Shown: one piece after another, positions 7,388 through 53,169 of the stretch
How the letters are laid out: each line of letters starts with the position of its first letter
Position numbering within the stretch: the stretch's first letter is position 1
DNA from: Clostridia bacterium
Lineage (GTDB): Bacteria > Bacillota > Clostridia > Oscillospirales > Acutalibacteraceae
Direction of reading: 5' to 3'
Length of the DNA: 64,000 nucleotides
NCBI GenBank assembly: GCA_017503785.1
Contig: JAFVSK010000018.1
Coordinates: forward strand, 106,079-170,078
Notes under the pieces: model-generated
The model's input: the letters and a program-made list of their open reading frames with translations, nothing else
What the model was told of the DNA's origin: nothing
Database searches by the model: none
Position numbers and translations under genes: made by a program

Positions 7388-7395
7388 GCACAACG

Positions 7396-9066: not shown

Positions 9067-9104
9067 TACGGACTCCCCGGCGAAATTTGTCGGCAAATCC
9101 CCTC

Positions 9105-30440: not shown

Positions 30441-30461
30441 AGTTAACACTCCTTACCTTAC

Positions 30462-32108: not shown

Positions 32109-32129
32109 GGGATATTCCTCCTTGTCAAA

Positions 32130-32747: not shown

Positions 32748-32824
32748 AATACTTCCTCCTTAAATTAGACAAAAGGCTCCCCATAAAGTGCCTTTATGGG
32801 GAGCCTTCAAGATCCGTTTACGCG

Positions 32825-38800: not shown

Positions 38801-39787
38801 TCTATCAACGGTAATCGTCACCTCATAGCTACGCACTTCAGCAAACTTCGGAATGGCCGAATACTCATTTTCGTCACCCGTGATCGTATACGTAACCTTG
38901 TCATCGGGCAGAAGTGTACCCTTCAAGATTGCCACGGGGAATTTCTCTCCCGTGTACTTGTTGATGGTTTTCTCAATGGAGATACCGGTGATTTCCGCAA
39001 GAGTCACGGACAACTTAACTTCCTTTGTCAGCGCCACGTAACCGGCTTTCGAAAGCTGGACATACACCGTTTTCTCACCAACGTCGGTAATCGAAACAGG
39101 CGTCTCCGTGAAATCAATGTTGTTTTCGCTGTACTTAACAGTATAGCCCTCTGCAGTTACCAAAGCCGTGTGCGCCTCACCGTCGTACACGCCGGTATAG
39201 CCCTCAACACTAACGGAATCCTCCAGCGGATATACCTGCACGCCGTCCTTCATCAGAACGATCTTCTCGCTGGGCGTCACCGCGAAGGTAACTTCTTGCT
39301 CGTACACAGCATCGCCGTCCCAGTCGAACTCATACACTCTGGTGGGCTTGAGTCCCTGAGCGGCAAACGTTTCCAGATCCTCGGGCGAAACAGGGAACCA
39401 CAGCTCAACGTAGCTGCCGTCGCCGTCGGCAGTGTCCGAAAAATCATACGGCGTGCCGTACTCTGCATCGAGCCCCTTCTTAATTCTAAAGCCCGCATTG
39501 TCGGCAATCTCAGTGGGAGCAGTCATCTTAATACCGACCCACCAGCCGGCAGCACGGTTCAAGCCCGCGTCAGCATCGACCCACTGTAACGTAGTCTCTT
39601 CCACCAGCACCGAAACCTTCGAGGGATCCTCGTCAGCCACCGTACCGCCGGTAAAGGTCGTTACCGTGCCGTAGTCCGTGCTTGTCGATGCAAACACGTT
39701 TGCCGGGATCATCGCGATCACCAGCAAAATCGCCAAAGCGATAGCTACCAGGCGGTCGAACGATCGTCTCTTCGCGTAATTTTTCAT
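32825..39787 (-). CDS. Giant (2,320 aa) surface protein with many Ig-like repeat modules, N-terminal signal peptide and C-terminal TM anchor
   Basis: Signal peptide ..IAMIPANVFAST. Recurrent module boundaries of the type (V/I)D.T.P....(V/I) occur at least 12 times. C-terminal WGVIGGVLLLTAAIIFFVIYKKRKKNA. No LPXTG motif seen. Confidence 0.85.
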   Translation of the reverse strand: MKNYAKRRSFDRLVAIALAILLVIAMIPANVFASTSTDYGTVTTFTGGTVADEDPSKVSVLVEETTLQWVDADAGLNRAAGWWVGIKMTAPTEIADNAGFRIKKGLDAEYGTPYDFSDTADGDGSYVELWFPVSPEDLETFAAQGLKPTRVYEFDWDGDAVYEQEVTFAVTPSEKIVLMKDGVQVYPLEDSVSVEGYTGVYDGEAHTALVTAEGYTVKYSENNIDFTETPVSITDVGEKTVYVQLSKAGYVALTKEVKLSVTLAEITGISIEKTINKYTGEKFPVAILKGTLLPDDKVTYTITGDENEYSAIPKFAEVRSYEVTITVDRGDNYRPYVQTVTSEIALGELVLGSLKVEGLEGIYTGNPQKVVTVSGNEGADYTIKYKLGVDGAWQEEIPTVVDAGSYTVFVKVTKANYEDKDVEVAPAQSAAVPFNVYIAKEEQTGFVFENATMPDLPYNSTVINQATGGQSTGEVTYEVTAGQEYVEVDENGNVKAIKAGGTATVTATRAGDNNYKAISTTYVINTIKADQTGFAFTQSEYSVQYGSKTTLTVTALGGQSGGTVTYEVVDGDIASINNTSGALTFNSGKTGPFTVKATLAGGNNYNDITAEATVKVNTNDFEDKYSVPDVPASGWYTIDVDITPAEGYKISNSDLFDATWMDKITIATEGKNTPAAIYLKHEETGYISEAVNVGEIWIDKTAPTELKIEYSQPIVEKIIEAVTFGFYKPSMEVTLTATDDISKLDKFSYKIGEDIEGEIAIEATDDATVSKTFTIPAELNQKAITFTATNKAGLSNVMVGDKVLVVDSLGPKIDIAYKPKDENTTVFFRNADSFVMDFNAATQAYYDGSVDAKISIEEVNFFEGYKYTDEQGAPIGKSVHEVGILVTKTDDQGKVTKIEYLPAEDAEQRFADVNETTVFEWKHEGDKHTLVIPLEDDADYVITVNYADFSTNDSTIKADDALEASTAQYTSKIITVDTVKPEISIEPANGAFYDKNKTVKVTVKEHNFVAELMNLEVTGFEYDKTTGDKVEITEFKQGETVLNYAEYLQKATWTEEATNVWVAEIPFETEANYSIKITGEDLAGNAQKDEVVDTFTVDETAPTDLSITYTPKFENVLWNAVTFGLGKVFGFYKDEVTVTLKATDTTSRLDTFTYKYTVDADAINSGNTGKDDTSVTVNGVTDEVVFTIPAQFRGKVSFVATDKSQNSTEFVDDDIDGVEKTIVVDNIAPEVSVKYTNEFYTNNVDNKLYLANHDTVATIVIEEANFFGAADLVEEKLKVYLTKVYDDETKNPETPTLLKDLTFNKVEGSADVYEAVLPTFNEDADYTLTIEYTDRSGNASSYKKEFTVDTTKPEISIEPANGAFYDKNKTVKVTVKEHNFNATLMNLEVTGFEYDKTTGDEVKITEFKQGETVLNYAEYLQEATWTEEATNVFVTEIPFETEANYSIKITGEDLAGNAQKDEVVDTFTVDKTAPLTGDLDIFVGDKSVKPEDLNEIAFNVFSQTTITVKLSAFDKTSGVASVKYQIVNHDEAFKLEENWVEYDAENGFRIEPNTRVIVYVRVEDKSTNTTIIHSRGIVVDDKAPDGSEEQQPPKITIAPQGANALGFNNSDVTVKLFVQDPKYVGATADLNGYYSGLKEISYQIVAADINAEYTAALMENAELQADVDGEVVRGEYDKLIHSWNGEIVIPASNFNSNHVCVTVTATDNAGNTTITTYKDIQIDITKPKINVSYDNNQADVGSVKYFKADRKATITITERNFNQEKVEIDITNTDGVIPAVVGWTKTEGTGNLDDTTWTATIDYVADGDYTFSVKYTDEAGNANEEVETGNSVQPYEFTIDKTLPVIVVTYDNNDVYNGKYYQRTRVATVTITEHNFAADRVTFDITAQDPLTTVAAPAPTAWVSNGDTHTATITYSADAEYTFDIAMKDLAGNDAADFAKQNFVVDNIDPALEITGVADKSANAGDVIPVVTYSDTNWDENNVTITLTGVNRKGVKISGKSVDDIRAGRTFGQTFTFDNFAEKKEIDDIYTLSVSLTDMAGRTTQKSILFSVNRFGSTYELSEDVQELLKQYYVKNVTSDVVIHEINTDVLTEYNVTLNGVELVKDTDYTVESTGGVGQWKRYTYTVKKELFEAEGEYILVVSSTDKAKNDAFSDVKDAAINFVVDRTPPVVTVSGITEDGRYQTDKQVVTLIPTDDGGALYSLLVYLVDEDGNKLKELVNLVDDKLADELTVGNGAITFTIDKGLYQNVRIECTDRASGNDGKANEYTVTIGNVSINSNAFIVQFWANKTLRWGVIGGVLLLTAAIIFFVIYKKRKKNA
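35367..35750. repeat. Internal 384-bp duplication in the giant gene, copy 2
   Basis: Near-identical to 36483-36866, exactly 1,116 bp away. The encoded 128 aa differ at about 10 positions. Confidence 0.9.
36483..36866. repeat. Internal 384-bp duplication in the giant gene, copy 1
   Basis: See 35367-35750. Encodes TVDTVKPEISIEPANGAFYDKNKTVKVTVKEHNF...DTFTVDETAP. Confidence 0.9.
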
Positions 39788-40203
39788 TCCGCATCTCTCC
39801 TTACTTCTTTAAACTCTGTATAAAAACGTCCGTTTAACAAACAATGCAGCCCCAACGAAAGGATCCACAGGGCCATCAGCGAAAACAGCACCCACAGATG
39901 CCACTGACAGGCTCGACCGATAATAAACACGATCAGCAAACACAACAGGGCACCGTCGGCAACAGCTGCCGGTTGGTTCTTGAAAAACCTCAAAAACCCA
40001 AAGGCTTGGGGCGTGCTTCGATGGATCAGGATCGCCCACAGCACAGTGGTGATCAATCCAAGCCAAAACAAGGCGCCCGAAATGTACAAGAATGCCGGTA
40101 CGGTATCGGCAAGCGGCATCAGCAGCACCGCTGCTGCCACCACCAAAACGCCTGCCAGATACCCACACAACAACCGCTTTTTGTAACGTAAATTACGACT
40201 CAT
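39784..40203 (-). CDS. Small multi-pass membrane protein
   Basis: 139 aa with 4 hydrophobic segments and a GAGGTGA RBS. The stop overlaps the start of the giant gene. Confidence 0.65.
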   Translation of the reverse strand: MSRNLRYKKRLLCGYLAGVLVVAAAVLLMPLADTVPAFLYISGALFWLGLITTVLWAILIHRSTPQAFGFLRFFKNQPAAVADGALLCLLIVFIIGRACQWHLWVLFSLMALWILSLGLHCLLNGRFYTEFKEVRRDAE

Positions 40204-40216
40204 AGCTTACGTCACC

Positions 40217-40675
40217 TCAAACGATGATCTCACTAGAATGTGTATAGGTAATATCACACTCAACCTGGAACGTTCCATCCGCCACAGCGGGCGCAGCCTG
40301 TACAGCTGCCATCGCCTCAGCGGCGCTCAACACCGTGGTTTCGGAAGCGGTTGCATTCAGCGTTGTCGTTTCGGAAGCTTCCATGCTATCGTAGCGGTCT
40401 TGAGCACTGATCTTGGTAGTTTCCTTTGTTTCGTAATCCAACCGCGCCGACGTGGTTTTGTTCGAATAGTCCACCTTGGTAGCGTGCTTTTTGTTATTGC
40501 CCGCTATCGAGCTCTTATTATGGATGTTTTCAACAGCTCTTCGCTTGTTCGTACCCGTAATATCACCGATCACACCGCGAATGTTCAACAGAAAGAAGAT
40601 CAACACCGTGGCGATCAGCATCACGATGGCGAGGACGAGTCCGCCTATGAAAATATAGTTGTATATCTCTTGCAT
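40217..40675 (-). CDS. Single-TM protein with a cytoplasmic tail carrying three ETT motifs
   Basis: 152 aa. N-terminal TM followed by basic residues (positive-inside). KETTKI, SETTTL and SETTVL at aa 84-116. AAGGAGGGG RBS. Confidence 0.65.
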   Translation of the reverse strand: MQEIYNYIFIGGLVLAIVMLIATVLIFFLLNIRGVIGDITGTNKRRAVENIHNKSSIAGNNKKHATKVDYSNKTTSARLDYETKETTKISAQDRYDSMEASETTTLNATASETTVLSAAEAMAAVQAAPAVADGTFQVECDITYTHSSEIIV

Positions 40676-40688
40676 AGCCGACCCCTCC

Positions 40689-42410
40689 TTATTCCTCTTT
40701 TATTGAATTGTACTTATCCAATGCACTGGTAATCTGACTCTGCAACGCCTCAATGTCTTCTTTCAGTGCCGGGATATTCACGGTTCCGGTTTTGGCATAA
40801 ACGTCATTCATCATAGCCGTAACATCGTCTTTTGAAATGTATTTAAAGGTAGTTTTCGGGTCGTTTGACAACAAATAGATTATCTGACTCCAAACACGAA
40901 TCTTTAGATCATTTTCTTTATCTTCCTTGTTGCTCACTTCATCTCGCAGGATCACCAAGGTGTTCCAAAGAGTTTGGTAGGCCTCACTCAACTTTTCGGT
41001 TTGTTTTCCTCTTCCATATTTATTGATTTGGCCTAATGCGGTAGAAATATCATCGTAGTGCTTTGCCATGGCAAGCGACTCATCGGAACTATCAAGAACC
41101 TCTTTAAACCATGTTGACGCCGCACTGTATCGATCACTCGGTACGTTCACATTGCTGTAGAAAAGAATATGCTCGCCGATTTCAAAGCAAACCTTTTGGT
41201 ATTTTGCAAGATCGGCCGTCTTCAGTTCCTCCAGAGGCTTTACGGTAGTGGTATACCCGTTTTTACCGGTTTTGTCGATACCTCGGCGCAGTTTTTCCAG
41301 CAAGCCGCTTTCGCTCGCGTCGTTTTCCAGTACGCCATCTTCAACCAAGCAGTCTAAAAGGCCGTCATAGCCGCTGCCACCCTCGTCATGGTCGCCGATA
41401 TAGGCCTCAGTGCGTGTGGGATCAATCAAAATCGCCTCTACATAATCATCCACGGTTTCAGCGGTATACCACGAAAACTCATAGTTATCCGCCTGAGCAG
41501 CCTGGGCCGAAAAATACCCAAACACCGACGTGGCAGCGAATACCAAGGTTAACGCCGCACTGGTGGCAAACAGCGACAACTTTTTCTTCTGCTGCTTAAT
41601 ATACTCGTCTTCAAAGTCCTTATAATGCTCCAGATCGTACATTAACTCCGCGCACGACTGATAGCGGTCGGCAGGGTTGTTTTGCGTACATTTTAAGATG
41701 ATCTTCTCCAAGCCGGTGGACAGCGCCGGATTGATCTCGGTGATCGGCCGGATCTCATACGGCGGCTGGCTCGGGTTCATGCCCGTCACCAAGTGGTAGA
41801 TCGTGGCACCCAAGCAATAAATATCGGTGCGGGCATCGGTTTGCCCCATGCCGCCGTATTGCTCCGGAGCCGCATAGCCACGCGTACCCAAGCAGGTGGT
41901 ATCCTCCACCTTCGAAGCCTTATGCTCGCGAGCGGTACCGAAGTCGATCAGCGAAATGGTGCCGTCAGGCTTGAGCATCACGTTAGCCGGCTTCATATCA
42001 CGGTAGATGATGGCCGGCTCGCGGGTGTGCAGATACCCCAGCACGTCGCACAGCTGCTTCGACCATTCAATAACGTCTTCCTGCGGCTGCGCGCCGAAAT
42101 CGCGCAGAGCCTTGTCCAGCGAGTTACCCTGAACGTAGTCCATAATAATAATGAACGAATCCGCAGTATCAATAACGTCAACGATACTGGGCAAATGCTT
42201 ATGACTCAGTTTTTTCAGAATATCGGTTTCGGCCACCAAGCCTTGCTTCACCGCTTCAAAATCCAAAACGCCGTCCTTACGCACTTCCTTAACGGCCCAT
42301 TGTTTATTCGCTCTTTCGTTCATGGCGAGGTACACAACGCTCATACCGCCCTGACCGACTTTATTTAATATTTTATATTTTCCGTCGACAAGCGAACCTA
42401 CTTCTAACAT
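40689..42410 (-). CDS. Hanks-type Ser/Thr protein kinase with TM helix and ~270-aa extracytoplasmic domain (not PASTA-like)
   Basis: GQGGMSVVY, WAVKEV, YRDMKPANVML, DFGTAR and GTRGYAAPEQ. TM LSLFATSAALTLVFAATSVFGYF. C-terminal domain unrecognised. Confidence 0.9.
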   Translation of the reverse strand: MLEVGSLVDGKYKILNKVGQGGMSVVYLAMNERANKQWAVKEVRKDGVLDFEAVKQGLVAETDILKKLSHKHLPSIVDVIDTADSFIIIMDYVQGNSLDKALRDFGAQPQEDVIEWSKQLCDVLGYLHTREPAIIYRDMKPANVMLKPDGTISLIDFGTAREHKASKVEDTTCLGTRGYAAPEQYGGMGQTDARTDIYCLGATIYHLVTGMNPSQPPYEIRPITEINPALSTGLEKIILKCTQNNPADRYQSCAELMYDLEHYKDFEDEYIKQQKKKLSLFATSAALTLVFAATSVFGYFSAQAAQADNYEFSWYTAETVDDYVEAILIDPTRTEAYIGDHDEGGSGYDGLLDCLVEDGVLENDASESGLLEKLRRGIDKTGKNGYTTTVKPLEELKTADLAKYQKVCFEIGEHILFYSNVNVPSDRYSAASTWFKEVLDSSDESLAMAKHYDDISTALGQINKYGRGKQTEKLSEAYQTLWNTLVILRDEVSNKEDKENDLKIRVWSQIIYLLSNDPKTTFKYISKDDVTAMMNDVYAKTGTVNIPALKEDIEALQSQITSALDKYNSIKEE

Positions 42411-42421
42411 TGTGTCACCCC

Positions 42422-43189
42422 TTAATATGTTCTCACGAGAACGACCGAAATGTTATCGCGCTCTTCCCGCTGCTTGTTCAGATCAATAAGAAATCTGCCG
42501 TTATTCTCCATAGTCGCAGAGTCGGTTAACGCAGCAGGTTGAAATTTCTCATAAATCTCATCAGGAGTAATCTCGTGCCGGAAGCCGTCTGAACACAGCA
42601 TATACACCGCATCGCTTTTGACATCGCCAAAAAACATATCGGGATATACCTCGTCCGATGCGCCAACGCACTGAAGTAACACACTTCTGCGGGGATCCAC
42701 CTTTGCCTCCTCGGCAGTCATTCTACCCAACTGGACCTCGCGGGCCACAAAGGTTTGATCCTCGGTTACCTGATGAAGTGTATCAGAAATCTCATAGGCA
42801 CGGGAGTCACCAACGTTTAAAATGTAATATCGGGTTTGGGTAAGGAGCATTACCACCACGGTGGTACCCAAACGGATGCCCTGACTGGCACCGTAGGCAC
42901 CGATGGTGCTGTTCTGCTTCACCACAATGCTCTCCCACTGACTGCGAATGGTGGCATCCTCAATGGGGGCGGAGCACAAGGCGGGCAGTTCGTTATACAC
43001 CCAATCGTTAAAGGCCGACACCACCGTCGTGCTTGCAACCTCACCCTTGGCAAGGCCGCCCATACCATCGCAAAGAATGGCAAACACCATTTTTCCCTGC
43101 TGCGTATTCAGCACTTTTACCGACAAACCGTCTTGGTTGGTGTCCTTAACATTGCCGATATCCGTATTTGCAGAAATCAAAAATTCCAT
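42422..43189 (-). CDS. PP2C-family Ser/Thr phosphatase
   Basis: TDIGNVKDTNQDG, AILCDGMGG, LNVGDSRAY, LCSDGF and NISVVLV motifs. Confidence 0.9.
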   Translation of the reverse strand: MEFLISANTDIGNVKDTNQDGLSVKVLNTQQGKMVFAILCDGMGGLAKGEVASTTVVSAFNDWVYNELPALCSAPIEDATIRSQWESIVVKQNSTIGAYGASQGIRLGTTVVVMLLTQTRYYILNVGDSRAYEISDTLHQVTEDQTFVAREVQLGRMTAEEAKVDPRRSVLLQCVGASDEVYPDMFFGDVKSDAVYMLCSDGFRHEITPDEIYEKFQPAALTDSATMENNGRFLIDLNKQREERDNISVVLVRTY

Positions 43190-43238
43190 ATTGGTAACCC
43201 CTTAGGCAAGAAAATTATAAAGCTCTAAAACGACCAAT

Positions 43239-43278
43239 AGATAGGGTACAGGCGGCGGTCTCACCGCCTGTACCCTAT
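43239..43278 (-). terminator. Strong hairpin between the FHA-protease and PP2C genes (attenuator/processing site or weak terminator)
   Basis: Perfect 16-bp stem GATAGGGTACAGGCGG / CCGCCTGTACCCTATC with an 8-nt loop. Only a short, interrupted T-tract follows on the minus strand. Confidence 0.35.
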
Positions 43279-43307
43279 CCGTATTCAACAAATTCTACGC
43301 GTTGGTC

Positions 43308-45044
43308 TTATTTCTTGTACTCAAACTTCTCGTCGGCCAACAGGATCTTGTCGCCATCTTTCAGTTCAACTTCCTGACCGGCGCGCGCCTTCACACCGTT
43401 AACGAAGGTGCCGTTGGCAGCCTTATTGTCAACAATGTAGGTAACACCGTCACGAACCACAAAGCGAGCATGCACACGGCTGATATTCGTATTGCCGCCC
43501 ACGCAGTAATCAACACTGCTGCGCTCTCTGCCCACCGTGAACTCGGCCGAGCAGATCGGAATACGCTCGTTGTTGCTGGAACGCACCAACGCACCGCCGT
43601 TCACGTTCTGCGACAGAACGGTGGTTTCACCGGCGCTCTGCGACAAAACGGTGGTTTCGCCGGCGCTCTGCGACAGAACGGTGGTTTCACCGGCAGAGGG
43701 GGCTGCAGGCTTCGCAGGAGCAGCCACAGGCTTCACGGCAGCCACCGGAGCGGGAGCAGCCACAGGCTTCGCGGCAACCGGAGCCACGGGAGCAACCGGA
43801 GCAGCCACCGGAGCGGGCTGAGCCTTTTTCTTGTTCATCGAAACGATCAGAATGATAACAACAACGATCACAGCAATCGCCACAACCGCGATGATACCGA
43901 TCATCACGTACTGATTCATAGCAGATTTCTGCTCTTCCTTCGCCAGCGCGTCGATAGCCTCATCCAAAGCCTCGGCAGCATTGTCGATGGTAGCCTGCGA
44001 ATCGGCAGTCAAAGCAGCCTTCGCATCCTTCAGAGCAGCCTTCATCGCCTTATAGGACTCTTCGGTGTAATCCTGAGCGGCATAGCCCTCAGCCTTGGTG
44101 ATCAGGCTCGACAGCTCGCTGGTGTTCAGCGTAGCACCGGTGGTCGTCGTAGTAGTATCGGCGGTCGTCGTTTTGATGGGACCGGGGCCAGCGAACGAAA
44201 TGTTCAGCGCAGTCAGGTAGGTAATCAGCTCTTTACTACTAATAGCCATGAAACGGCTTCCGTCTCCTGCGGCGTTCACGCCCACCACGTTACCGTCTTT
44301 GTCTACCAGCGGGCCGCCGGAGTTGCCACCGGTGATCAGCGCGCTGTTCACTACGCAGTTAACATCTTTGTATTCATGAACTTCATAGTTGTCATCGTAT
44401 GCATCAAACTCTACGTCACCGACCTTGTTCACATTACCACTACTAATGGTAATATCGTCAATGTCGTAGGTGTTTTTAGAATCAATACTTACCAAATCCG
44501 AAGGATAACCGATAGCAAACACCTCGTCGGTCTGCTTCAATTCGTCGCTGTTGCGGATGGCCAGAGGGGTGCGAGCAATCTGCTGGCTCAGTGTCAGCAC
44601 GGCCAGGTCGAGCTCGGGGTTAGCGTTGGTGAGCTTCGCCTTCACGTAAGTACCACGATACAGCATTACGCGCAGCTCCAGCATATCCTTGATCTGAGCC
44701 GCCGTACGGTTGGTGCTGTTTTCGGCGTTGGTGAGCTTTGCCCAGTTAACATACCACTCATCCGGGAAACCGTTCGCCACGTGCTGGCAGGTTACCACGG
44801 TGGTGTCGTTCACCAGGAAGCCGGTGCCATAGTGAAGCGGCACTTCGGTAGCAGTTTCAGGGTCTTTAAACCACACCTGCACCTGTACAACGCCGTTCTT
44901 GGCCTCGGTGACAGCCTGGCCCACTTCGGCAGCATTGGCGCTGAACGCCATACCGAACACCAAGCACATCATCATGCTTACTGCGAGAATCAAGCTAACG
45001 AGCTTTGTTCTCTTTGCTTCGGGATTCTTTGTTTTGAAGAACAT
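43308..45044 (-). CDS. Fusion protein: signal peptide, trypsin-like (S1/HtrA-type) protease, helical stalk, TM helix, Pro/Ala linker, 3x GETTVLSQSA repeat, FHA domain
   Basis: Protease triad context: TCQHVANG, DLAVLTL, GNSGGPLVDKDGNVVGV. TM MIGIIAVVAIAVIVVVIILIV followed by KKK. FHA domain: FTVGRE...ISRVHARF...NGTFVNG. Confidence 0.85.
   Translation of the reverse strand: MFFKTKNPEAKRTKLVSLILAVSMMMCLVFGMAFSANAAEVGQAVTEAKNGVVQVQVWFKDPETATEVPLHYGTGFLVNDTTVVTCQHVANGFPDEWYVNWAKLTNAENSTNRTAAQIKDMLELRVMLYRGTYVKAKLTNANPELDLAVLTLSQQIARTPLAIRNSDELKQTDEVFAIGYPSDLVSIDSKNTYDIDDITISSGNVNKVGDVEFDAYDDNYEVHEYKDVNCVVNSALITGGNSGGPLVDKDGNVVGVNAAGDGSRFMAISSKELITYLTALNISFAGPGPIKTTTADTTTTTTGATLNTSELSSLITKAEGYAAQDYTEESYKAMKAALKDAKAALTADSQATIDNAAEALDEAIDALAKEEQKSAMNQYVMIGIIAVVAIAVIVVVIILIVSMNKKKAQPAPVAAPVAPVAPVAAKPVAAPAPVAAVKPVAAPAKPAAPSAGETTVLSQSAGETTVLSQSAGETTVLSQNVNGGALVRSSNNERIPICSAEFTVGRERSSVDYCVGGNTNISRVHARFVVRDGVTYIVDNKAANGTFVNGVKARAGQEVELKDGDKILLADEKFEYKK
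43608..43697. repeat. 3 x 30-nt tandem repeat encoding (SA)GETTVLSQ
   Basis: CTGCGACAGAACGGTGGTTTCACCGGCGCT repeated three times with 2-3 substitutions. Confidence 0.9.
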
Positions 45045-45145
45045 TTTCTACTCCTCCACGTTGAATTTGTTTATGTAATCGGTAATAGTACCGTTCACAT
45101 CGTCGTCACAAAAAATTTCAAATTGTGATACACTGGTCTTAATCC

Positions 45146-45165
45146 TTCGTAGAACTGATACTTCT
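45146..45165. repeat. Inverted repeat, left arm (IRL)
   Basis: TTCGTAGAACTGATACTTCT, the exact reverse complement of 46585-46604. Confidence 0.95.
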
Positions 45166-45394
45166 AAAAATGAATATATATTCCAAAAAAAGGTATAATA
45201 CACCTACTATTGCGGTTATTATATCACTCGGAACAGGGTTTGTCAATTATTCCCTGCCGGTTTTTGTCGAAAATATTAAGAATTTGTAAATTTTTGCCGT
45301 GTGAGATTTTATGCAGTTAGTATTATTCGCCGTTTGTGGTCAGCGCTGTGGTCGGAGAACTTCTCAATCTATAATCAAGAAAGGATGATTACTT

Positions 45395-46513
45395 ATGTCA
45401 AGGCGCGGGGATCATATTCATAAGCGAAAGGACGGACGTTGGGAGGGCCGCTATCGTATAGGGACCAACATGGACGGAACGGCTCATTATCGCTCAGTAT
45501 ATGCGCACACCTATGCTGACTGTAAAGCCAAACTGACCGAAGCAACCGCCCGGCGACACAGCGAACCGCCTTCGTCAGCAAAGCAACTGCGTTTTCGTGA
45601 AGCCATATATCAGTGGCTTTCTGTCAAGCAAATGCAACTAAAGAGCTCCACCAAGCTAAAATATCGTGACATGATTGAAAAACATATTTTACCGGAACTG
45701 GGAGAACTTCCCTTATCCACTCTTAATGCCGTTGTAATCAGCTCTTTTTTAGAGCGAAAGCTACATTGCGGGGGTGTCAAAAGCAGTACTCCCTTAGCAT
45801 CTTCCTATGTAAGAACCATGGCGATTCTCATCACTTCAGCACTGGAGTTTGCCGCCTCTCTCGGCTGGTGCGTCCCTCTGAAAATTCCACCGTGTCTGCC
45901 AAGCGTTCCTAAGAAAGAACCAACCGTATTAACAAAAATCGAAGAAGAAACTTTGACGGACTTTTTGTTGCAAGAGCATTCTCTAACCGTATTGGGAACT
46001 CTGCTGGCTCTACAAGCAGGCCTGCGCATCGGTGAGGTCTGTGCCCTGCGTTGGTGTGATATTGACCTTGAAAAACGCTTACTACACGTTCGGCATACGC
46101 TATCCCGAACCGTATCAGAAGAAACTTCTAAAACCGTTTTCATTTTAGATCGACCGAAATCACGTTCATCCCACCGTGACGTTCCGTTAACTGCAGCCTT
46201 GCTGCAAAAGCTACATGCAGCGCGCGAAATTCGCCTTTCCGATTACGTTATTTCTGAAACCTCATCGTTTGTTGGTACACGAACATTTGAATACCGCTAT
46301 AAAGCCCTGCTCAAAAGAGCAGGTGTTCGGCCAATTAATTTCCATGCGTTGCGACACACCTACGCTACCCGCTGTGCCGAAGCCGGAATGGATGCCAAGA
46401 TGCTAAGCATGCTGTTGGGGCACGCTTCCGCGACAACAACGTTAAATGTGTATGTACATCCCTCTATGGAAAGTGCATCACAGCAGGTAGAAGCTATTTA
46501 CCGTCTTGCCTGA
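45395..46513 (+). CDS. Tyrosine site-specific recombinase (phage-integrase family)
   Basis: 372 aa. N-terminal KRKDGRWEGRYRIG arm-type motif, GLRIGEVCALRW, HALRHTYATRCAEAG and LGHASATTTLNVYVH (R..H-x-x-R..H..Y). Confidence 0.9.
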   Translation: MSRRGDHIHKRKDGRWEGRYRIGTNMDGTAHYRSVYAHTYADCKAKLTEATARRHSEPPSSAKQLRFREAIYQWLSVKQMQLKSSTKLKYRDMIEKHILPELGELPLSTLNAVVISSFLERKLHCGGVKSSTPLASSYVRTMAILITSALEFAASLGWCVPLKIPPCLPSVPKKEPTVLTKIEEETLTDFLLQEHSLTVLGTLLALQAGLRIGEVCALRWCDIDLEKRLLHVRHTLSRTVSEETSKTVFILDRPKSRSSHRDVPLTAALLQKLHAAREIRLSDYVISETSSFVGTRTFEYRYKALLKRAGVRPINFHALRHTYATRCAEAGMDAKMLSMLLGHASATTTLNVYVHPSMESASQQVEAIYRLA

Positions 46514-46530
46514 ACGGGGTCAAAATAAGG

Positions 46531-46560
46531 GTCACAAAACGGCACAGATCCTTATATAAT
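46531..46560 (+). promoter_or_regulatory. Putative outward-facing promoter just inside IRR
   Basis: GTCACA, 18 nt, TATAAT (46555-46560). It points out of the segment through IRR. Confidence 0.4.
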
Positions 46561-46584
46561 GCAAGGCTCTGCGCTGTTCTTTAC

Positions 46585-46604
46585 AGAAGTATCAGTTCTA
46601 CGAA
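46585..46604. repeat. Inverted repeat, right arm (IRR)
   Basis: AGAAGTATCAGTTCTACGAA. Confidence 0.95.
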
Positions 46605-46616
46605 AGCAAGATGCGC

Positions 46617-47123
46617 TTACACCCCAAAAAAGCAAGCACATCTCCTAAACGGCTGCTCGCGCACGATCTGTATGAGCAGCAGCGTTGCCACGGCGCTAAG
46701 CCCCCAAAAACAAACAGCAATCCCCTCCGGCCACCATTGCAATAATTGCGTCATATCGTCGCTTGGCAGCGGCACTCCTCCGGCAAAGCATACCACCGAT
46801 ACTACCGAAAGCACAAGAGCCACCAGTGCCGTTATCTTAACCAACAGCGAAAGATACCATCCCCAAAACCACCGGCAGCTCAACAGACTGAGCGCAGCCG
46901 GAAACAGCACCCCTGCCAGAGAAATCACGATCCGCCCCTCTTGCGTAACAGCGGCAAGATCACACACCACGTACGGCAGCGGCAGCACGTGCACCTCCTT
47001 CACCGTGGCGCCTGTCAACAGCGCTGCCAGCGCGTGCCCGGTCTCGTGCAGTGCCGGATACAGCACCAACGCAACAGCCATTCCCAAGGCAGTGATTCCC
47101 ACCATTTTCCCTAACAGTTTCAC
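46617..47123 (-). CDS. Membrane protein with HExxH motif (DUF3267-like putative zincin)
   Basis: LYPALHETGHALAALLTG plus about 5 TM segments. A GTG start at 47123 after AAGGGG is preferred because the longer ORF starts inside the terminator hairpin. Confidence 0.6.
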   Translation of the reverse strand: MKLLGKMVGITALGMAVALVLYPALHETGHALAALLTGATVKEVHVLPLPYVVCDLAAVTQEGRIVISLAGVLFPAALSLLSCRWFWGWYLSLLVKITALVALVLSVVSVVCFAGGVPLPSDDMTQLLQWWPEGIAVCFWGLSAVATLLLIQIVREQPFRRCACFFGV

Positions 47124-47156
47124 AAGAACACCCCTTACGAGTGTTCCCGCAACACA

Positions 47157-47194
47157 ACAAAAAAACACCGTCCATCCGGACGGTGTTTTTTATT
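47157..47194. terminator. Bidirectional terminator; right copy of the 38/39-bp direct repeat
   Basis: ACAAAAAAACACCGTCCATCCGGACGGTGTTTTTTATT. Differs from 28924-28962 by one loop base and one T. Confidence 0.8.
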
Positions 47195-47203
47195 CAGTCA
47201 CGT

Positions 47204-48088
47204 TTAATGCGCCTGTACCGATTGCGTGTACTCACGCGGGGTCATGCCAGTGGCCTGCTTGAAGTGCCGCGAAAAATAGTGCACCGAGGTGTAGCCCAGC
47301 CGATCGGCGATCTGCGTAATGTTGCCGCAGCCCTCGCGCAGCAGCTGCTTGGCGCGCTCGATCTTCAAATGGCGGTAATATTCCATAACGCCCATGCCCG
47401 TTACCGATTTGAACACGGTTTTCAGGTTGGTGGCGCTTTGTGCCGAGAACACGCAAATGGTGGAGAACGACAAATTCTCGCACAGGTGCTCCTCCATGTA
47501 GCGGATCACACGCTCGGTCATTTCGTTGTCGGCGCGCTGCTTCACGCTGGAGGCCACACGCGGGCGCTCCACCACGGGGGCGGCACTGCGCACAATGTCG
47601 ATCAGCAGCTGCTCCAGCACCAAGCCCACCATCTGCTGCGAGCCGAACGGCGCTGCTTCGTCGCAAGTCAGCTGCGGCACCATCGGGTCGCCCAGAGGGC
47701 AGGAAAACGCCTGGCGCGCCTCGTTGATGATATTGGACAACAGCTTCCGCTGCTGCTGCGTGGCGTACATGACCTTGTTCTCAAAGAACGCCATGGCAGG
47801 CGAATGCGACACAAACGACACGATCACCACATTGGGTGCCACCGTTCCGTTGGCCATGAGATTGTGATATTCGTTGGGCTTGTGGAAGATCATTTGACCC
47901 TGCAGCATTTCGTAGGTCACGTCCTCGGCGACCTCGCGCACCTGGCCCTTGTCCACGTACACCAGTTCCCAGAAATCGTGCGATTCGCCCTTAAACGCGT
48001 AATTTTTGGCGTGCTCCAGGTAGTGCACCGACACCACCGACTCCACCGTAATTTCGCGTTTGAGCACGGTAGGAATATAGTCCGTCAT
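47204..48088 (-). CDS. AraC-family transcriptional regulator (cupin + HTH)
   Basis: The C-terminal ..FSTICVFSAQSATNLKTVFKSVTGMGVMEYYRHLKIERAKQLL..ITQIADRLGYTSVHYFSRHFKQATGMTPREY is a classic AraC HTH pair. Start at MTDYIP after AAGGGGA. Confidence 0.85.
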   Translation of the reverse strand: MTDYIPTVLKREITVESVVSVHYLEHAKNYAFKGESHDFWELVYVDKGQVREVAEDVTYEMLQGQMIFHKPNEYHNLMANGTVAPNVVIVSFVSHSPAMAFFENKVMYATQQQRKLLSNIINEARQAFSCPLGDPMVPQLTCDEAAPFGSQQMVGLVLEQLLIDIVRSAAPVVERPRVASSVKQRADNEMTERVIRYMEEHLCENLSFSTICVFSAQSATNLKTVFKSVTGMGVMEYYRHLKIERAKQLLREGCGNITQIADRLGYTSVHYFSRHFKQATGMTPREYTQSVQAH

Positions 48089-48105
48089 TCCAACATCCCC
48101 TTGCT

Positions 48106-49275
48106 TTATAAGTACACGCGCGGCACTCGCTGCCCCACGCGGCATAGGATCTCGTACACAATGGTTCCCGCCGACTCCGCCAGCGCATCGGCCGGCAGGC
48201 CGTTACCGAACACAACCACCTCGTCGCCGGGCTGTACCTGCAGTCCGGTCACGTCCAGCACGCATTGGTCCATACACACGCGACCCACGATGGTGGCGCG
48301 TTCACCGTTCACCAGCATGGTTGCCGTGTTGGAGCAGGCGCGCGGCAAGCCGTCGGCATAGCCGATGGGCACCGTGGCCAATTGCGTTTCGCGGGTGGTC
48401 ACGCCCATGCCGCCGTAGCTGACAGCCGTGCCCGCAGGCACAGTTTTCACCTGCGCCACCACGGTTTTGAGCGACATGGCGGGGGTAAGCTCCTCCCACG
48501 AAAGCGACGCATCCGGCACGCCGCCGTACAGCAGCAGCCCCGGGCGCACCATATCGAGATGCATTTCGGGGAACCGCAGGGTGGCAGCGCTGTTGCAGCA
48601 ATGCCGTAGCGCCACGGTGATGCCGGCTTCGCGCAGGCGGTTGGTAACTTCCTCGAACAACGCAAACTGATGCCGCGTTTTCGCTTCGTCGGGATCGTCG
48701 GCAAAGGCAAAATGGGTAAACAGCCCCTCGGCTTGCAAATGCGGCAGCGTGCAGGCGGCGGCGATCTCGTCGATCGCGGCACCGTGCTGCTGATACACAA
48801 AGCCCAAGCGGGACATACCCGTATCAATTTTAATATGTACCGGCAACACCACACCCGCGTGGGCCGCTTCGGCCTCCAGCGCTTCGGCGTAGGCCGCGTC
48901 GGACACGGTTTGCGTAATGTGCAGCCGCGCCAGCTCCGCCGCCTCCTCGGGAGGGGTGTAGCCTAAGATCAGTATCGCTTGTGTGAGGCCTGCCTCGCGC
49001 AGCTCGGCGGCTTCGCACAGGTTGGACACCGCCAACCAATCGGCGCCCGCCTCCACCAACGCCTTGGCCGTGGGCACCGCGCCGTGACCGTAGCCATCGG
49101 CCTTGACGATCGCCATAACGCGGCAATCCTCACCCACCAAGCGGCGCACCGCGCGGTAGTTGGCCGCGATCGCCTCGGTGGACACCGCCGCCCAGGTACG
49201 CTTCAGCACCGCAACGTCGCCCCTCTCACACTTTGACATTAATTTAACAAGCATGTTCAGTATACCCCAATTCAC
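48106..49275 (-). CDS. alr: Alanine racemase
   Basis: AIVKADGYGHG (PLP lysine), VAQVKTVPAGTAVSYGG, ATVPIGYADG and VCMDQCVLDV. Start uncertain (GTG 49275, ATG 49254 or ATG 49239). Confidence 0.85.
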   Translation of the reverse strand: MNWGILNMLVKLMSKCERGDVAVLKRTWAAVSTEAIAANYRAVRRLVGEDCRVMAIVKADGYGHGAVPTAKALVEAGADWLAVSNLCEAAELREAGLTQAILILGYTPPEEAAELARLHITQTVSDAAYAEALEAEAAHAGVVLPVHIKIDTGMSRLGFVYQQHGAAIDEIAAACTLPHLQAEGLFTHFAFADDPDEAKTRHQFALFEEVTNRLREAGITVALRHCCNSAATLRFPEMHLDMVRPGLLLYGGVPDASLSWEELTPAMSLKTVVAQVKTVPAGTAVSYGGMGVTTRETQLATVPIGYADGLPRACSNTATMLVNGERATIVGRVCMDQCVLDVTGLQVQPGDEVVVFGNGLPADALAESAGTIVYEILCRVGQRVPRVYL

Positions 49276-49440
49276 CTATTTAATCAAGAAAAATGACAAG
49301 GAATGACAAAAAATACCAATCAGCCGCCCAAAAAGATAAATTTGCACATTTCGGCTCGCAAATGACAAACCGCTCGCCCATCTGTGCACAAGCAAGAGGA
49401 TTTACGCAGAACACTTACCCAGCGAAAATCCGACTGCGCT

Positions 49441-49495
49441 GTAGGGACCGACATCCTCGGCGGTCCGCCAAGGATCGTGCTAATGCGTGGGAAGC
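49441..49495. repeat. REP-like GTAGGG-hairpin element
   Basis: GTAGGGACCGACATCCTCGGCGGTCCGCC followed by AAGGATCGTGCTAATGCGTGGGAAGC. Confidence 0.8.
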
Positions 49496-50380
49496 TTATC
49501 GACACACGCCGGTGAGGTCGAACGCCGGGATCATGGCCTCGCCCGCCGCCTCGCGGCTTTGCACGTAACCGTCGGTGAGCCCCAAATCTATCATACGCTG
49601 CCACACCTTGTCACATTCCCGCGCGGTCACACGGCGAGACAGCTCAGGATGCCCCGCCACCTCGTCCATGGGCGTGTACTGAAACATGAGGCTCACGTAG
49701 CAGCCCTGCGGCAGCACCGCGGCCAGCGTTTCCAGGCAGCGGAGCGAATCGTTGGTGTGCCCCGGCAGCACCAAATGCCGCACCACCGTGCCGCGCTGAA
49801 TAAGGCCGTGCTCATCCAGCACCACGGGCCCTGTTTGCCGTGCCATCTCACGAATGGCTGCCGCCGCAACGGCGGGATAGTCCTCGGCCCCCGACAACGC
49901 CTGCCCCAGCGCCGCCGAAGCGTATTTGTAGTCGGGCAGATACACGTCCACCAAGCCCTCCAAGGCACGCAGCGTTTCCACACGCTCCCATCCGGAGGAA
50001 TTGTACACCACCGGCACGGGCGGCCGATACTGCCGCAGCGCTTCACGCACGGCGGGCACGTAGGGCGTGGGGCTTACCAGATTGATATTGTGCGCCCCTG
50101 CCTGCACCAGCTCGCGAAAAATTTCCGCCAACCGCGCGGGCGATACGGGCGCACCTGCAGCGGTGCGACTGATGGCGCGATTTTGGCAAAACGCGCACGC
50201 CAGCGTGCAGCCGCCGAAAAACACCGTGCCCGAACCGCGCTCGCCGCTGATGCACGGCTCTTCACCGAAATGCAGCGCCGCTCGCGCCACCATGGCCGTG
50301 TTCGGCAAACGGCAACGCCCCGCCCCCTCCGTTTCTGTACGGACGGCGCGGCAGCGGTGTGGACACAACGAGCACAGCAT
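49496..50380 (-). CDS. Radical SAM protein (PflX-like activase family)
   Basis: CSLCPHRC..., then GGCTLACAFCQN (CxxxCxxC cluster) and an ..INLVSPTPY.. TIM-barrel pattern. Start at MLCSLC after GGAGGAGG. Confidence 0.7.
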   Translation of the reverse strand: MLCSLCPHRCRAVRTETEGAGRCRLPNTAMVARAALHFGEEPCISGERGSGTVFFGGCTLACAFCQNRAISRTAAGAPVSPARLAEIFRELVQAGAHNINLVSPTPYVPAVREALRQYRPPVPVVYNSSGWERVETLRALEGLVDVYLPDYKYASAALGQALSGAEDYPAVAAAAIREMARQTGPVVLDEHGLIQRGTVVRHLVLPGHTNDSLRCLETLAAVLPQGCYVSLMFQYTPMDEVAGHPELSRRVTARECDKVWQRMIDLGLTDGYVQSREAAGEAMIPAFDLTGVCR

Positions 50381-50466
50381 AGCGGTCACCTCCTCCACAG
50401 TATACACCGTTTGTGCAACAAAAACAAGCATTTGTGCACCGTTTGTGCAAAAAAAAGCGCTGCGTA

Positions 50467-50667
50467 GGGAGACTTCTCTAAGGGAAGTCTCCCAGTTTTA
50501 TTCGCCAAAGGCGAGTTCTATTGCTGCGCAGTGATATTCGGCTAACGCCGAGTGGTATTCGCTTCGCGAGTTTTGGTGGCGAATAAAATAACACTGAAAC
50601 CGAAAGGTTTCAATAACACTATTGCCGTAAGGCAATAATATCACTCCGACAAAGTCGGAATATAACT
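50467..50667 (+). repeat. Multi-hairpin intergenic element, divergent copy C
   Basis: Same order of parts as copies A and B: a long first hairpin (GGGAGACTTC..GAAGTCTCCC); AGTTTTATT, AGTTCTATT, AGTGATATT and AGTGGTATT each followed by a hairpin; then AATAACACT x2, AATATCACT and AATATAACT each flanked by hairpins. Several stems have different sequence with pairing kept. Confidence 0.7.
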
Positions 50668-50713
50668 TGAAAGACTACCGGTTTTTATGTATAATAATTT
50701 TGAGGTGATAACA

Positions 50714-51064
50714 TTGGCTGATAGCATTTTAAGAGATAAAGCAAAAGAATTTGCAAAGACTATTGTTTTTCTCTGTCGTGATATGAAAGAAAATTGTAAG
50801 GAATCAGTTTTAATAAACCAATTACTTCGTTCTGCTACTTCAATCGGTGCGAATTTACACGAAGCACAATACGCACAAGGAACAAAGGATTTTATTTCTA
50901 AACTTGAAATAGCACAAAAAGAATGCTACGAAACTGAATATTGGCTTGAACTTCTATTTGAAACAAATTGCATGAATGAAGAAAATTATAAAGCATTACA
51001 AAACGATTGCGGTGCTATCCGCAGAATGTTAATTTCTTCTCTTAAAACAATAAAATCGAAATAG
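50714..51064 (+). CDS. Four-helix-bundle protein (23S rRNA intervening-sequence protein / Avd-like family)
   Basis: ..RDKAKEFAKTIVFLCRDM...LINQLLRSATSIGANLHEAQYAQGTKDFISKLEIAQKECYETEYWLELL is the recognisable family pattern. A TTG start at 50714 after GAGGTGA is preferred (the track ORF starts at 50687). Strongly A/T-rich relative to its surroundings. Confidence 0.75.
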   Translation: MADSILRDKAKEFAKTIVFLCRDMKENCKESVLINQLLRSATSIGANLHEAQYAQGTKDFISKLEIAQKECYETEYWLELLFETNCMNEENYKALQNDCGAIRRMLISSLKTIKSK

Positions 51065-51199
51065 GGGTTTGGGCTTACCTACAAACTCTTATGAAATAAA
51101 AAAACGCACCGGAAATATCGGTTTATCATTGGTTTCCTAAGTATGCTAAGGAAAAAAGATATATCGAAATATGGTTGCCTATAGAAAAAGCAAGATAAC

Positions 51200-51240
51200 A
51201 AAAAGTTCCAGACAGAGATTTTTCTGCCTGGAACTTTTTG
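51200..51240. terminator. Bidirectional terminator
   Basis: AAAAAGTTCCAGACAG-AGATTTTT-CTGCCTGGAACTTTTT. Confidence 0.75.
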
Positions 51241-53109
51241 TTATCCGATCTCTTTTCCGTCTTTCCAATAGCCGGCATTCACGCGGCCGTCGGCAAAGAT
51301 ATACCGCCCGGGGCCGTTACGCTCACCGTTTTCCCATTGTCCCTCAAAGCGGTCGCCGCTCTTCCAGTAATAGGTGCCACTGCCCTCGCGTTTACCGTTC
51401 ACCCACATGCCGTCGTACACGTCGCCGTCGGCATAGGTCATTTTCCCGCGGCCGTGGCGCCTACCGTTCTTCCAGTCGCCCGTGTACACCTCGCCATCCG
51501 TCCACGTGTACGTGCCATGTCCGCACTTTTGATCATTCACCCACGCGCCGCTATACACGTCGCCGTTCTTCCACGTGTACGTGCCGTGTCCGCTCACTTG
51601 ATCGTTCACCCACTCGCCGTCGTACGCGTCACCGCTTTTATAGGTCATTTTTCCGCGACCGTGACAGCGAAGTCTGCCGTGCTCGGCTTCGTGCAACGCT
51701 CCCTCGTACACACTGCCGGTGCTGTAGCGCACCCGCACGTGGTCCAGCTGCAGCACACCGTTTTGCCAGGTGCCCTCGTAGGTATCCTCACCCTCGTCCA
51801 CGTACACACCGCGGCCGTGGCGCTTACCGTCCTTCCATTCGCCCTCGTAGGTGCAATCGTCGCTCTCCTCCAGCCGTCCAAAGCCGTTGTACGCACCGTT
51901 CTTATAGCTGCCAATGTACGTTGTGCCATCGTCGTATTCCACGCGCGCATGCCCGCACGGCTCATCGTCGCGCCAATCACCGTCGTACACCACTTCACTC
52001 TCGTTACCGTATTGGTCTTTCGTTTTTTTCACGAGCTTGCCCTTGCCGTGGCGCTTATCACTTTTCCAGTCGCCCTCGTAGGTGCTGCTGTCGGCATAGG
52101 TCATCACGCCGCGACCGTGGCGCTCACCATCCTTCCAGTTGCCCTCGTACGCCGCACCGTCATTGTACACCAACCGGCCGAAGCCGTTGCGCTTGCCATT
52201 CTCTGCCATGCCGTCGTAGACAAAGCCGTCGCAAAATACCGCATGTATGTGACCGTGCGCTTTCCACTGCTTCCACTCGCCGTCCACAGAGGCGCCGTTA
52301 TCGTATGTCAGGCGGCCGCGGCCCTCGATCATGTCGTCGCACCAGTCGCCAACGTACGTGCGGTTGCTCCAGCGATACTCGCCGTGGCCGTGGCGCTTGC
52401 CGTCACGCCAGCTGCCGCGGTACACCGAGCCGTCCTTATACGTCATGGTGCCCACGCCGTGCGGCACGTCGCCCACGCGGTCGCCGCTATATTCGCCCGC
52501 CTCGGTAAACACCTGCTCGTCGGACTCCACCACCCCGAACACCTCGCCGATCTGGCGCAGCAGGGTTTCGGTGTGACCCGCCGCTTGATACTTCACGTAG
52601 GTGTGGCTTTGCGGGAACATTTCGGCCAGCACCGTCATTTTTTCCAGATCCACGCAGCCCTCGGCAAACGCTTCGCCCAGCATCTGTTGCGGGCTCTTTT
52701 GGGCCAGCTTCACGCAAAAATACGTTTTCGGCTCGGCGCCCTCCACCGGCTTGCCGTGTTCGTCGCACCCGCGGGTAAACTGCACCTCGCGGTAAATGGC
52801 ACTGCTGCGCAGCATGCTTTCACTCAAATAAAAAATTACGCCGCGGCAGTTGGGATGCTGGATCCACGCCTGCGCATCGTCGTCCCACGCTTCGCCGGCC
52901 GTGAAATGCCGATCGTAGAAAAACCGCACGTTTTGATCGTACAGATCGGCCAAGTCGGCGTACACCTGCTTGTAATCCACGCGCGCATAGCTGATGAACA
53001 CAAAGGTCTTTTTTTCGCGGTCAAACTCGGGCAGGGGCACCTTGTCGCACACATCCAGACTGCTTGCCGCCGCCAGTTGTTTTTTGTATTCTTCGCTGTT
53101 AAACGCCAT
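51241..53109 (-). CDS. TIR-domain protein with a long MORN-repeat array
   Basis: N-terminal [38 protein letters not shown]...[20 protein letters not shown] (TIR_2-like). The C-terminal ~400 aa hold about 16-17 repeats of the type Y.G.W.dGkrHG.G. The ATG at 53109 follows GAGGAGG. Confidence 0.8.
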
Positions 53110-53140
53110 GCTTCGCGCCTCCTCGCAGGGTACTGTATTC

Positions 53141-53169
53141 ATTATAAACGTCCGCTACAGGCTTGTCAA
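53141..53169 (-). promoter_or_regulatory. Consensus sigma-70/sigma-A promoter of the TIR-MORN gene
   Basis: On the minus strand: TTGACA (53169-53164), exactly 17 nt, TATAAT (53146-53141), about 30 nt upstream of the start codon. Confidence 0.7.

Follow-up and report, generated by a model that had tools for sequence, protein, structure and literature searches.

The question raised by the DNA analyzed here is how a short segment, which contains a single recombinase gene between perfect inverted repeats, relates to the long operon that starts directly next to it. The segment lies in a stretch of 64,000 nucleotides (nt) from a Clostridia bacterium (assembly GCA_017503785.1, contig JAFVSK010000018.1, positions 106,079 to 170,078), which is referred to as the window and is identical to the ENA gut-metagenome scaffold L001. 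It spans 1,459 base pairs (bp; 45146-46604), and its only substantial gene encodes a tyrosine recombinase of 372 amino acids (aa). An initial annotation of the sequence had proposed that this segment inverts and thereby acts as a phase switch of the neighboring genes for a protease, a phosphatase, a kinase and a surface protein. Taking together the repeats, the behavior of related cassettes and the contig ends observed at this locus, it is highly probable that the segment is a self-contained invertible promoter cassette, which switches the adjacent kinase/surface-protein operon.

The segment and its inverted repeats

The segment is bounded by TTCGTAGAACTGATACTTCT at 45146-45165 on the plus strand and by the exact reverse complement of this 20-mer at 46585-46604. 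A search of the 64-kb window that allowed up to three mismatches returned these two copies and no others, and not a single match was obtained in 100 dinucleotide shuffles. As this is far beyond chance, the repeat is not fortuitous, and the perfect 20-bp inverted repeats of the initial annotation are confirmed. Beyond its perfect part the repeat continues imperfectly to 25 nt (92% identity), giving a left repeat at 45146-45170 on the 5′ side of the recombinase gene (IR5) and a right repeat at 46580-46604 on its 3′ side (IR3), which is the exact reverse complement of IR5 over 46585-46604. IR5 includes a core-type site that consists of the half-site TAGAA (45150-45154), the 7-bp spacer CTGATAC (45155-45161) and the half-site TTCTA (45162-45166). 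No further core site was found in the window beyond those of the two repeats.

Other properties of the segment also agree with the initial annotation. Its G + C content is 0.34-0.50 compared to 0.55-0.65 in the flanks, the one gene inside (45395-46513, plus strand) codes for a protein with the domains Phage_integrase (5e-26) and Phage_int_SAM_3, and the left repeat lies 101 nt before the ATG (45044) of the minus-strand gene train for the protease, PP2C, kinase and surface protein. There is no indication of a classical integrated element. A tRNA scan of 40000-52000 and an Rfam scan of 44800-46900 (E up to 1) returned nothing, no significant direct repeats were detected around the segment, and no phage or mobile-element genes are located near it. 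With neither a tRNA nor significant direct repeats, and with chromosomal operons as neighbors, the locus does not have the features of an integrated prophage or of an integrative and conjugative or mobilizable element. Nor does it resemble an insertion sequence or transposon, with unduplicated flanks and just two copies of the repeat in the window. The initial annotation had named ends of a transposable unit with target-site duplications as an outcome that would speak against a switch; no such duplication is present at the repeat edges in the window (left ...TTAATCC, right AGCAAGA...).

Inversion in related cassettes

Two related cassettes, termed P0098 and P0017, do invert. For the P0098 cassette (47% identity), contig L033 from ENA, a k = 141 assembly, and contig L024 from JGI share an interior of 1,429 nt in forward direction with 100% identity, while both flanks are reversed and the 25-nt overlaps are the repeat itself. 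In nine of ten P0098 contigs the outward promoter of the cassette (P_out, see below) faces an operon consisting of HTH_3 and FHA/FtsK-SpoIIIE genes, and in one of ten the cassette is flipped. The P0017 cassette (53% identity) exhibits the same picture, with contigs L051 and L046 sharing a forward interior of 1,464 nt (99.9% identity) between reversed flanks. As the contigs of both cassettes cross both junctions, and as the assembly k exceeds the 25 nt of their repeats, both orientations must exist in the reads. The family thus combines inverted repeats that bound a segment with both orientations seen directly for two members, as is characteristic of invertons. The initial annotation had suggested to look for a flipped segment in related genomes, and these two cassettes occur in both orientations, and a third one (L022) has the opposite relative orientation in another species.

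Contig ends at the locus itself

For the cassette of the window, information on a flipped form comes from Logan assemblies, which are made from k = 31 unitigs after removal of singleton k-mers and subsequently assembled with Minia3 (PMC12424806). In run SRR12529278, contig L002 has a length of 1,469 nt and corresponds to 45146-46614 of the window, i.e., it begins at the first base of the left repeat and runs 10 nt past the right one. The contig with the operon, L057, ends at 45175 and overlaps L002 by 30 nt, which equals k − 1. As a repeat of 20 bp alone cannot break a k = 31 graph, the break between L002 and L057 needs another cause. In a unitig simulation, the forward sequence by itself produced no break, addition of both flipped junctions produced a unitig of 45146-46604, and addition of the flipped left junction produced one of 45136-46604. 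The forward sequence with the flipped right junction yielded 45146-46614, as observed. By the same k-mer logic, applied outside the simulation, the left contig should stop at 45175 in this model, which is again the observed position. The contig ends are good, if indirect, evidence for a flipped form in a minority of the cells of the SRR12529278 sample.

Another cassette, L045, has a similar signature, with a repeat of 22 nt and a contig that stops at the repeat edge on one side and 8 nt (k − 1 − 22) past it on the other. Logan contigs of cassette length were counted as evidence for inversion only for repeats shorter than 30 nt. The 1,438-nt Logan contig of L055 was rejected by this rule, as its 30-nt repeat equals k − 1 and breaks a k = 31 graph unaided.

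The outward promoter and the assembled state

Just inside the left repeat lies a promoter sequence, P_out (45218-45246, minus strand), with the −35 box TTGACA at 45246-45241, a 17-nt spacer, a TG element and the −10 box TATAAT at 45223-45218. It matches the consensus in 12 of 12 positions, is the sole strong promoter match in 44900-46800 and points leftwards, through IR5, towards the operon. Among the ten cassettes that were compared (listed below), the equivalents of P_out are perfect in nine (12/12) and reach 11/12 in the tenth. They are always located on the strand opposite to the recombinase gene, and the distance from the −10 box to the IR5 core is 49-52 nt in seven of the nine cassettes with a perfect promoter and 31 and 44 nt in the other two. 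In the 101-nt spacer before the operon no other minus-strand promoter match of at least 9/12 was found. P_out would be the promoter that drives the operon. As P_out faces the operon in the assembled orientation, the assembly most likely shows the ON state.

The initial annotation had arrived at the opposite state. It assigned the promoter function to a GTCACA-N18-TATAAT motif at 46531-46560, at the other end of the segment, considered the assembly to be OFF and expected inversion to turn the operon ON. This motif does exist, with 10 of 12 matches, and it does point outwards. A function as outward promoter is doubtful, however. In five other cassettes no counterpart turned up in the corresponding region, and the TATAAT of the motif falls into the loop of a hairpin downstream of the recombinase gene, whereas the opposite end carries the conserved 12/12 promoter, which already faces the operon. 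This version of the switch is very unlikely, and the assignment as OFF state is not supported.

The hairpin in question (46539-46584, plus strand) is followed by UUCUUU and is probably a weak terminator of the recombinase gene ahead of IR3 (z = −1.2). Clear hairpin and T-run terminators are found at the equivalent position in L024 and L004. In relatives with OFF orientation, a terminator-like hairpin just outside the repeat meets P_out (L004, 3743-3766; L046, 3746-3722). A further, weak hairpin of 6 bp, followed by U7, is located in the leader of P_out (about 45183-45205, minus strand), just after the predicted start. It was considered as a possible attenuator and is weak, with no visible conservation in the other cassettes.

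The recombinase

The protein encoded in the segment belongs to the tyrosine recombinase superfamily (PF00589 at 5e-26, over the cut-off), and R211, H317, R320, H343 and Y353 are invariant among 75 homologues. An AlphaFold2 model (pLDDT 85.9) contains strands at residues 8-10, 16-24 and 30-37, a helix at 40-56 and a linker of low confidence at 55-62. It thus predicts an N-terminal domain of three strands and a helix (about residues 8-56), to be followed by core-binding and catalytic domains. In Foldseek, all fold matches were tyrosine recombinases, with Tn1549 Int and full-length lambda Int as top matches, the latter aligned over 385-391 columns; the closest solved relative is Tn1549 Int (E = 1e-18). 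A Pfam scan of the N-terminal 72 residues gave no model match. Judged by the model and the Foldseek matches, the protein has the arm-binding N-terminal domain of heterobivalent integrases of the lambda/Tn916 type, and it is best described as a lambda/Tn1549-like integrase with a predicted arm-binding domain.

No curated NCBIfam family reached its cut-off. The family of FimB/FimE-type tyrosine DNA invertases (NF007370) scored 25.4 bits against a cut-off of 221 for this 372-aa protein, and among the Xer families (XerC/D/S/A) the best was XerA with 82 bits (cut-off 220), with XerC and XerD at 47 bits (cut-offs 330-335). A serine invertase of the Hin/Gin/Cin type does not come into question, as a Resolvase domain (PF00239) is missing and just the Phage_integrase and SAM-like domains are found. 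A look-up of a 347-aa NCBI variant of the recombinase (P0001) returned no record.

Potential binding sites for the N-terminal domain flank the recombinase gene. Upstream, direct repeats GGTCA/GGTCG (45338-45342 and 45350-45354, plus strand) lie 12 nt apart before the ribosome-binding site, and downstream two GGTCA copies (46518-46522 and 46530-46534, plus strand), likewise 12 nt apart, follow directly after the stop codon. The alignment used for counting these motifs took in eight cassettes, while the comparison of cores and promoters took in all ten. Paired GGTC[AG] motifs about 12 nt apart were present before the ribosome-binding site in five of the eight, with a single copy in the other three, and the same numbers were obtained for the motifs after the stop codon. 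This suggests that the GGTCA pairs are putative arm-type sites for the N-terminal domain. As the model of this domain and the GGTCA repeats fit together, they suggest a heterobivalent integrase with putative arm sites inside the invertible segment. The arm-binding-type N-terminus, which the initial annotation had listed as a caveat, was thus found as a predicted domain and, with the GGTCA pairs lying within the element, looks like a part of the inversion mechanism.

The nature of the enzyme also raises the possibility that it is simply the integrase of a decayed prophage or integrative element, with the repeats being fortuitous or relics and the contig breaks being assembly noise. Pfam and PHROGs do label the protein as phage integrase, and its closest solved structure is a transposon integrase. 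Yet the chance expectation for the repeat is 0, the cassette anatomy is conserved in ten lineages, no phage or element genes lie nearby, and the contig ends equal the k = 31 prediction to the base. In addition, two relatives occur in both orientations with contigs crossing both junctions, including a k = 141 contig, and distant integrases without such repeats do exist: the loci L007-L013 (24-27% identity), found by genome scan, have no flanking inverted repeats and were excluded from the family. An ordinary relic integrase is therefore extremely unlikely, this explanation being largely refuted by the conservation and the observed inversions.

Proposed mechanism

For the segment as an invertible promoter cassette, the following mechanism is proposed. 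The recombinase would itself catalyze the inversion, recombining the two inverted core sites TAGAA-7 bp-TTCT[A/G], and binding of its N-terminal domain to the paired GGTCA repeats on both sides of its gene, acting as arm sites, would probably assist. With the core sites being inverted, each reaction would resemble attL × attR and regenerate equivalent sites. Inversion would redirect P_out, which is located some 50 nt inward of the repeat on the 5′ side of the recombinase gene. As assembled, P_out would read through the left repeat into the operon for the FHA-protease, PP2C, Hanks kinase and 2320-aa surface protein (ON). After inversion it would run antisense into the 3′ end of a convergent gene for a 183-aa protein, and the operon would face the 3′ end of the recombinase gene and the hairpin and receive read-through only (OFF or low).

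Several points weigh against this reading. The flipped state of this exact locus is deduced from contig ends and not seen as sequence, and of the two flipped junctions the graph implies just one. That SRR12529278 represents the sample of the window is unproven, although L002 and L057 are identical to the window over 6.3 kb (40308-46614) that include the locus. P_out is a consensus match alone, and the recombinase gene's own promoter is poorly defined, with a best match of 9/12. Lambda-type enzymes usually require accessory factors, and the cassette contains no excisionase-like or other accessory gene. Given the weakness of the recombinase-gene hairpin in the window (see above), the OFF state may be leaky, and read-through from the upstream minus-strand alr, araC-type and 183-aa protein genes could also reach the operon.

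A family of cassettes

Homologue searches and context look-ups revealed ten distinct cassettes, namely those of the window, L004, L005, L022, L024, L035, L042, L045, L046 and L053. The recombinases of the related cassettes come from different organisms and are 43-55% identical to that of the window. All ten cassettes have a length of 1.40-1.46 kb and the same order of parts: inverted repeat, P_out, GGTCA repeats, recombinase gene, GGTCA(AAA) repeats, hairpin with T-run, inverted repeat. The repeat core TAGAA-N7-TTCT(A/G) is common to all ten. The 7-bp spacer is the same in both repeats of each cassette and occurs in eight forms among the ten, which is the pattern expected if the spacer is the strand-exchange (overlap) region flanked by recombinase half-sites. 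At the level of proteins (clustered at 90% identity), at least 120 clusters share at least 46% identity with the recombinase of the window, and in 19 of the best 120 homologue clusters the longest contig has 1420-1494 nt, which is about the length of a cassette.

The metagenome contig L004, which is AT-rich, contains the same 20-mer as the window, extended to 27 bp, as an inverted pair around the gene of a 377-aa recombinase (43% identity), and the nucleotide similarity of L004 to the window is confined to this 20-mer. Another contig that matches the 20-mer, L003, was discarded as a chance match within a coding gene of an unrelated high-GC organism. A sister cassette of 1,297 nt was seen in a Ruminococcus metagenome-assembled genome (L006, 1205-2501), the recombinase of which is 34% identical. 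As it has a different repeat, TTAAATATATCTTTTGCGAAA, and an outward promoter (10/12), the cassette design extends past the TAGAA-N7-TTCTA group.

The genes behind the cassettes differ considerably. Tad pilus operons (TadZ, TadA, T2SSF) are found in L004, L035-39, L042-44 and L052-54, an HTH_3 gene with an FHA/FtsK-SpoIIIE ATPase gene in L024, and the FHA-protease/PP2C/kinase module in the window, L005 and L022, with the 2320-aa surface protein being seen in the window only. L046 carries, at 5600-9119, an unusual module of a small HTH_3 regulator, a 697-aa protein without domain match and a 1153-aa tubulin-like protein of the Tubulin_2 family. The Tad pili and the giant Ig-like protein are surface structures, and the remaining cargo consists of secretion-like or signaling systems. 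Surface structures are usual subjects of phase variation. In scaffold L052, an N-gap (about 3788-3798) lies exactly at the repeat beside the 5′ end of the recombinase gene.

This variety of cargo could also be taken to mean that the cassette is a small mobile element with terminal inverted repeats, which inserted before operons and for which inversion is incidental and without regulatory role. The same type of cassette does precede unrelated operons (Tad, FtsK/FHA, kinase, tubulin-like), an identical 20-mer repeat occurs in two unrelated genomes, and the G + C content is below that of the flanks. Some copies also lie in surroundings that look like those of a conjugative element: in L042 (1-3135) and L046 (1-3713), cassette and cargo adjoin genes for a TraG/VirD4-type coupling protein, HTH_36, Toprim and an NS_2 endonuclease. 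From the occurrence of one cassette type before unrelated operons it follows that cassettes have moved in the course of evolution. Against mobility as the whole explanation, the repeat edges show no target-site duplication, and neither a second copy nor a further core site was seen in the 64-kb window; a tRNA and direct repeats are likewise missing. Moreover, in L022, from another species, the orthologous operon (proteins 66-79% identical) has a cassette at the corresponding site as well, with a recombinase of 55% identity and in the opposite relative orientation, an arrangement that fits a long residence of the switch at this site and vertical descent rather than a recent insertion. Conservation also extends to the outward promoter, the terminator and the location ahead of a co-oriented operon. 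A mere mobile element without regulatory role is thus quite unlikely, and the reading as an invertible promoter cassette is preferred.

Neighboring genes

The putative target operon (29493-45044 at its largest extent, minus strand) starts with the ATG at 45044. Its first gene encodes an FHA-trypsin protease (43308-45044) and is followed by genes for PP2C (42422-43189), the Hanks kinase (40689-42410), two small membrane proteins (40217-40675 and 39784-40203) and the 2320-aa Ig-like surface protein (32825-39787). At 29493-32747, genes for two zinc-ribbon membrane proteins, one of them with WG repeats, and for an SPFH/Band 7 protein follow on the same strand with short gaps. The unit controlled by the switch may extend through this region and would then reach about 15.5 kb.

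On the right flank, convergent with the recombinase gene, lies the gene for the 183-aa membrane protein, which contains an HExxGH motif (46617-47168, minus strand). This protein is homologous (E = 2e-20) to a 171-aa M50-like protein (L024, 6245-6760, minus strand), the gene of which occupies the equivalent place next to the P0098 switch in another species. A look-up of the 183-aa protein returned the already known contig alone, with similar places being collapsed. Beyond its gene, the right flank includes an AraC-type regulator and alanine racemase. A few kb to the right of the switch (51241-53142, minus strand) lies the gene of a possible defense or signaling protein, which has about 622-633 aa, MORN repeats and a weak TIR_2 domain.

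Relation to known systems

The H segment of Salmonella, with a length of about 1 kb, drives an adjacent surface-structure operon in one of its orientations, and its recombinase, Hin, is of the serine type and depends on an enhancer bound by Fis. As in this segment (hixL-hin-promoter-hixR, fljBA), a recombinase gene and an outward promoter lie inside a repeat-bounded invertible segment in the cassette described here. Unlike Hin, the enzyme belongs to the tyrosine recombinases (catalytic residues R-H-R-H-Y) and lacks a Resolvase domain, and the GGTCA repeats are the putative accessory sites. The layout is thus the tyrosine-recombinase counterpart of the Hin segment, and of the Hin-style switch put forward in the initial annotation the layout stands but the enzyme does not, being a lambda/Tn1549-like tyrosine integrase instead of a serine invertase.

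With regard to the class of enzyme, fimS and the RecV switches are nearer than Hin. FimB and FimE have a size of about 200 aa and lack an arm-binding domain, and their genes lie outside the switch of 314 bp. In E. coli fimS with FimB/FimE and in the related ipuS and hyxS, a tyrosine recombinase inverts a promoter element that turns a surface organelle ON or OFF (PMC6083910). The present cassette differs in being 1.46 kb long and in carrying its own enzyme, which scores 25 bits against 221 for NF007370. RecV is a single recombinase encoded elsewhere, which acts on many short switches of about 150-300 bp. The Clostridioides difficile RecV switches (flagellar, cwpV, cmrRST, pdcB) are tyrosine-recombinase inversions that control surface and signaling loci (PMC5386303; PMC5903667; 10.1101/690230). 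In contrast, each cassette of the family described here has its own recombinase, and no further sites are present in 64 kb. The recombinases of both fimS and RecV systems are, moreover, short, without arm domains and encoded outside the switch.

A tyrosine recombinase gene between the inverted repeats that it recombines is the layout of the ivr locus. This locus, with PsrA/CreX in Streptococcus pneumoniae, belongs to the epigenetic invertons of type I restriction-modification systems (PMC7096588; PMC7672463). There, the repeats lie within hsdS coding sequences and specificity domains are shuffled, whereas here the repeats are intergenic and a promoter would be re-aimed. Closest in sequence and fold are the integrases of lambda and Tn916/Tn1549, with which the recombinase shares a three-strand-plus-helix N-terminus (predicted here); in the manner of arm sites, repeated motifs are found close to the core sites of the cassette. 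The lambda and Tn916/Tn1549 enzymes act on directly oriented sites, between which they integrate and excise elements, while the core sites of the cassette are inverted.

Implications

Invertible promoters are already known, and the cassette would add to them a self-contained form with an integrase-type enzyme. No published description of such a cassette family was found in the literature searched, the coverage of which is incomplete. PhaseFinder-type surveys reportedly limit the distance between inverted repeats to about 750 bp, and standard inverton surveys may for this reason have missed cassettes of 1.4 kb. In gut Clostridia (Oscillospiraceae, Ruminococcaceae and relatives), such cassettes of about 1.4 kb might form a large family of autonomous phase-variation units that has so far escaped description, made from domesticated lambda/Tn916-type integrases with attL/attR-like sites placed in inverted orientation; the chances for this wider view appear about evenly balanced. 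If it is correct, an endlessly repeatable excision-type reaction would flip a consensus promoter, and each cassette would serve one operon, be it for Tad pili, FtsK/FHA secretion-like ATPases, tubulin-like systems or Ser/Thr-kinase and giant-adhesin modules.

One of the main ways in which gut bacteria change their surfaces is phase variation through DNA inversion, and the invertons catalogued so far are mostly short promoter elements that were studied mainly in Bacteroidetes, C. difficile and enterobacteria. The cassette would add to these a compact and widespread module of repeats, consensus promoter, own integrase and terminator. It would provide a naturally occurring example of an arm-binding integrase that acts as invertase, which is of mechanistic interest and possibly of use as a self-contained genetic toggle, and its inversion would explain recurrent assembly breaks of about 1.4 kb in metagenomes. 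For the abundant and poorly studied Clostridia themselves, it offers a candidate explanation of how Tad pili, secretion-like ATPases and Ser/Thr-kinase/adhesin modules may come to differ between on and off from cell to cell.

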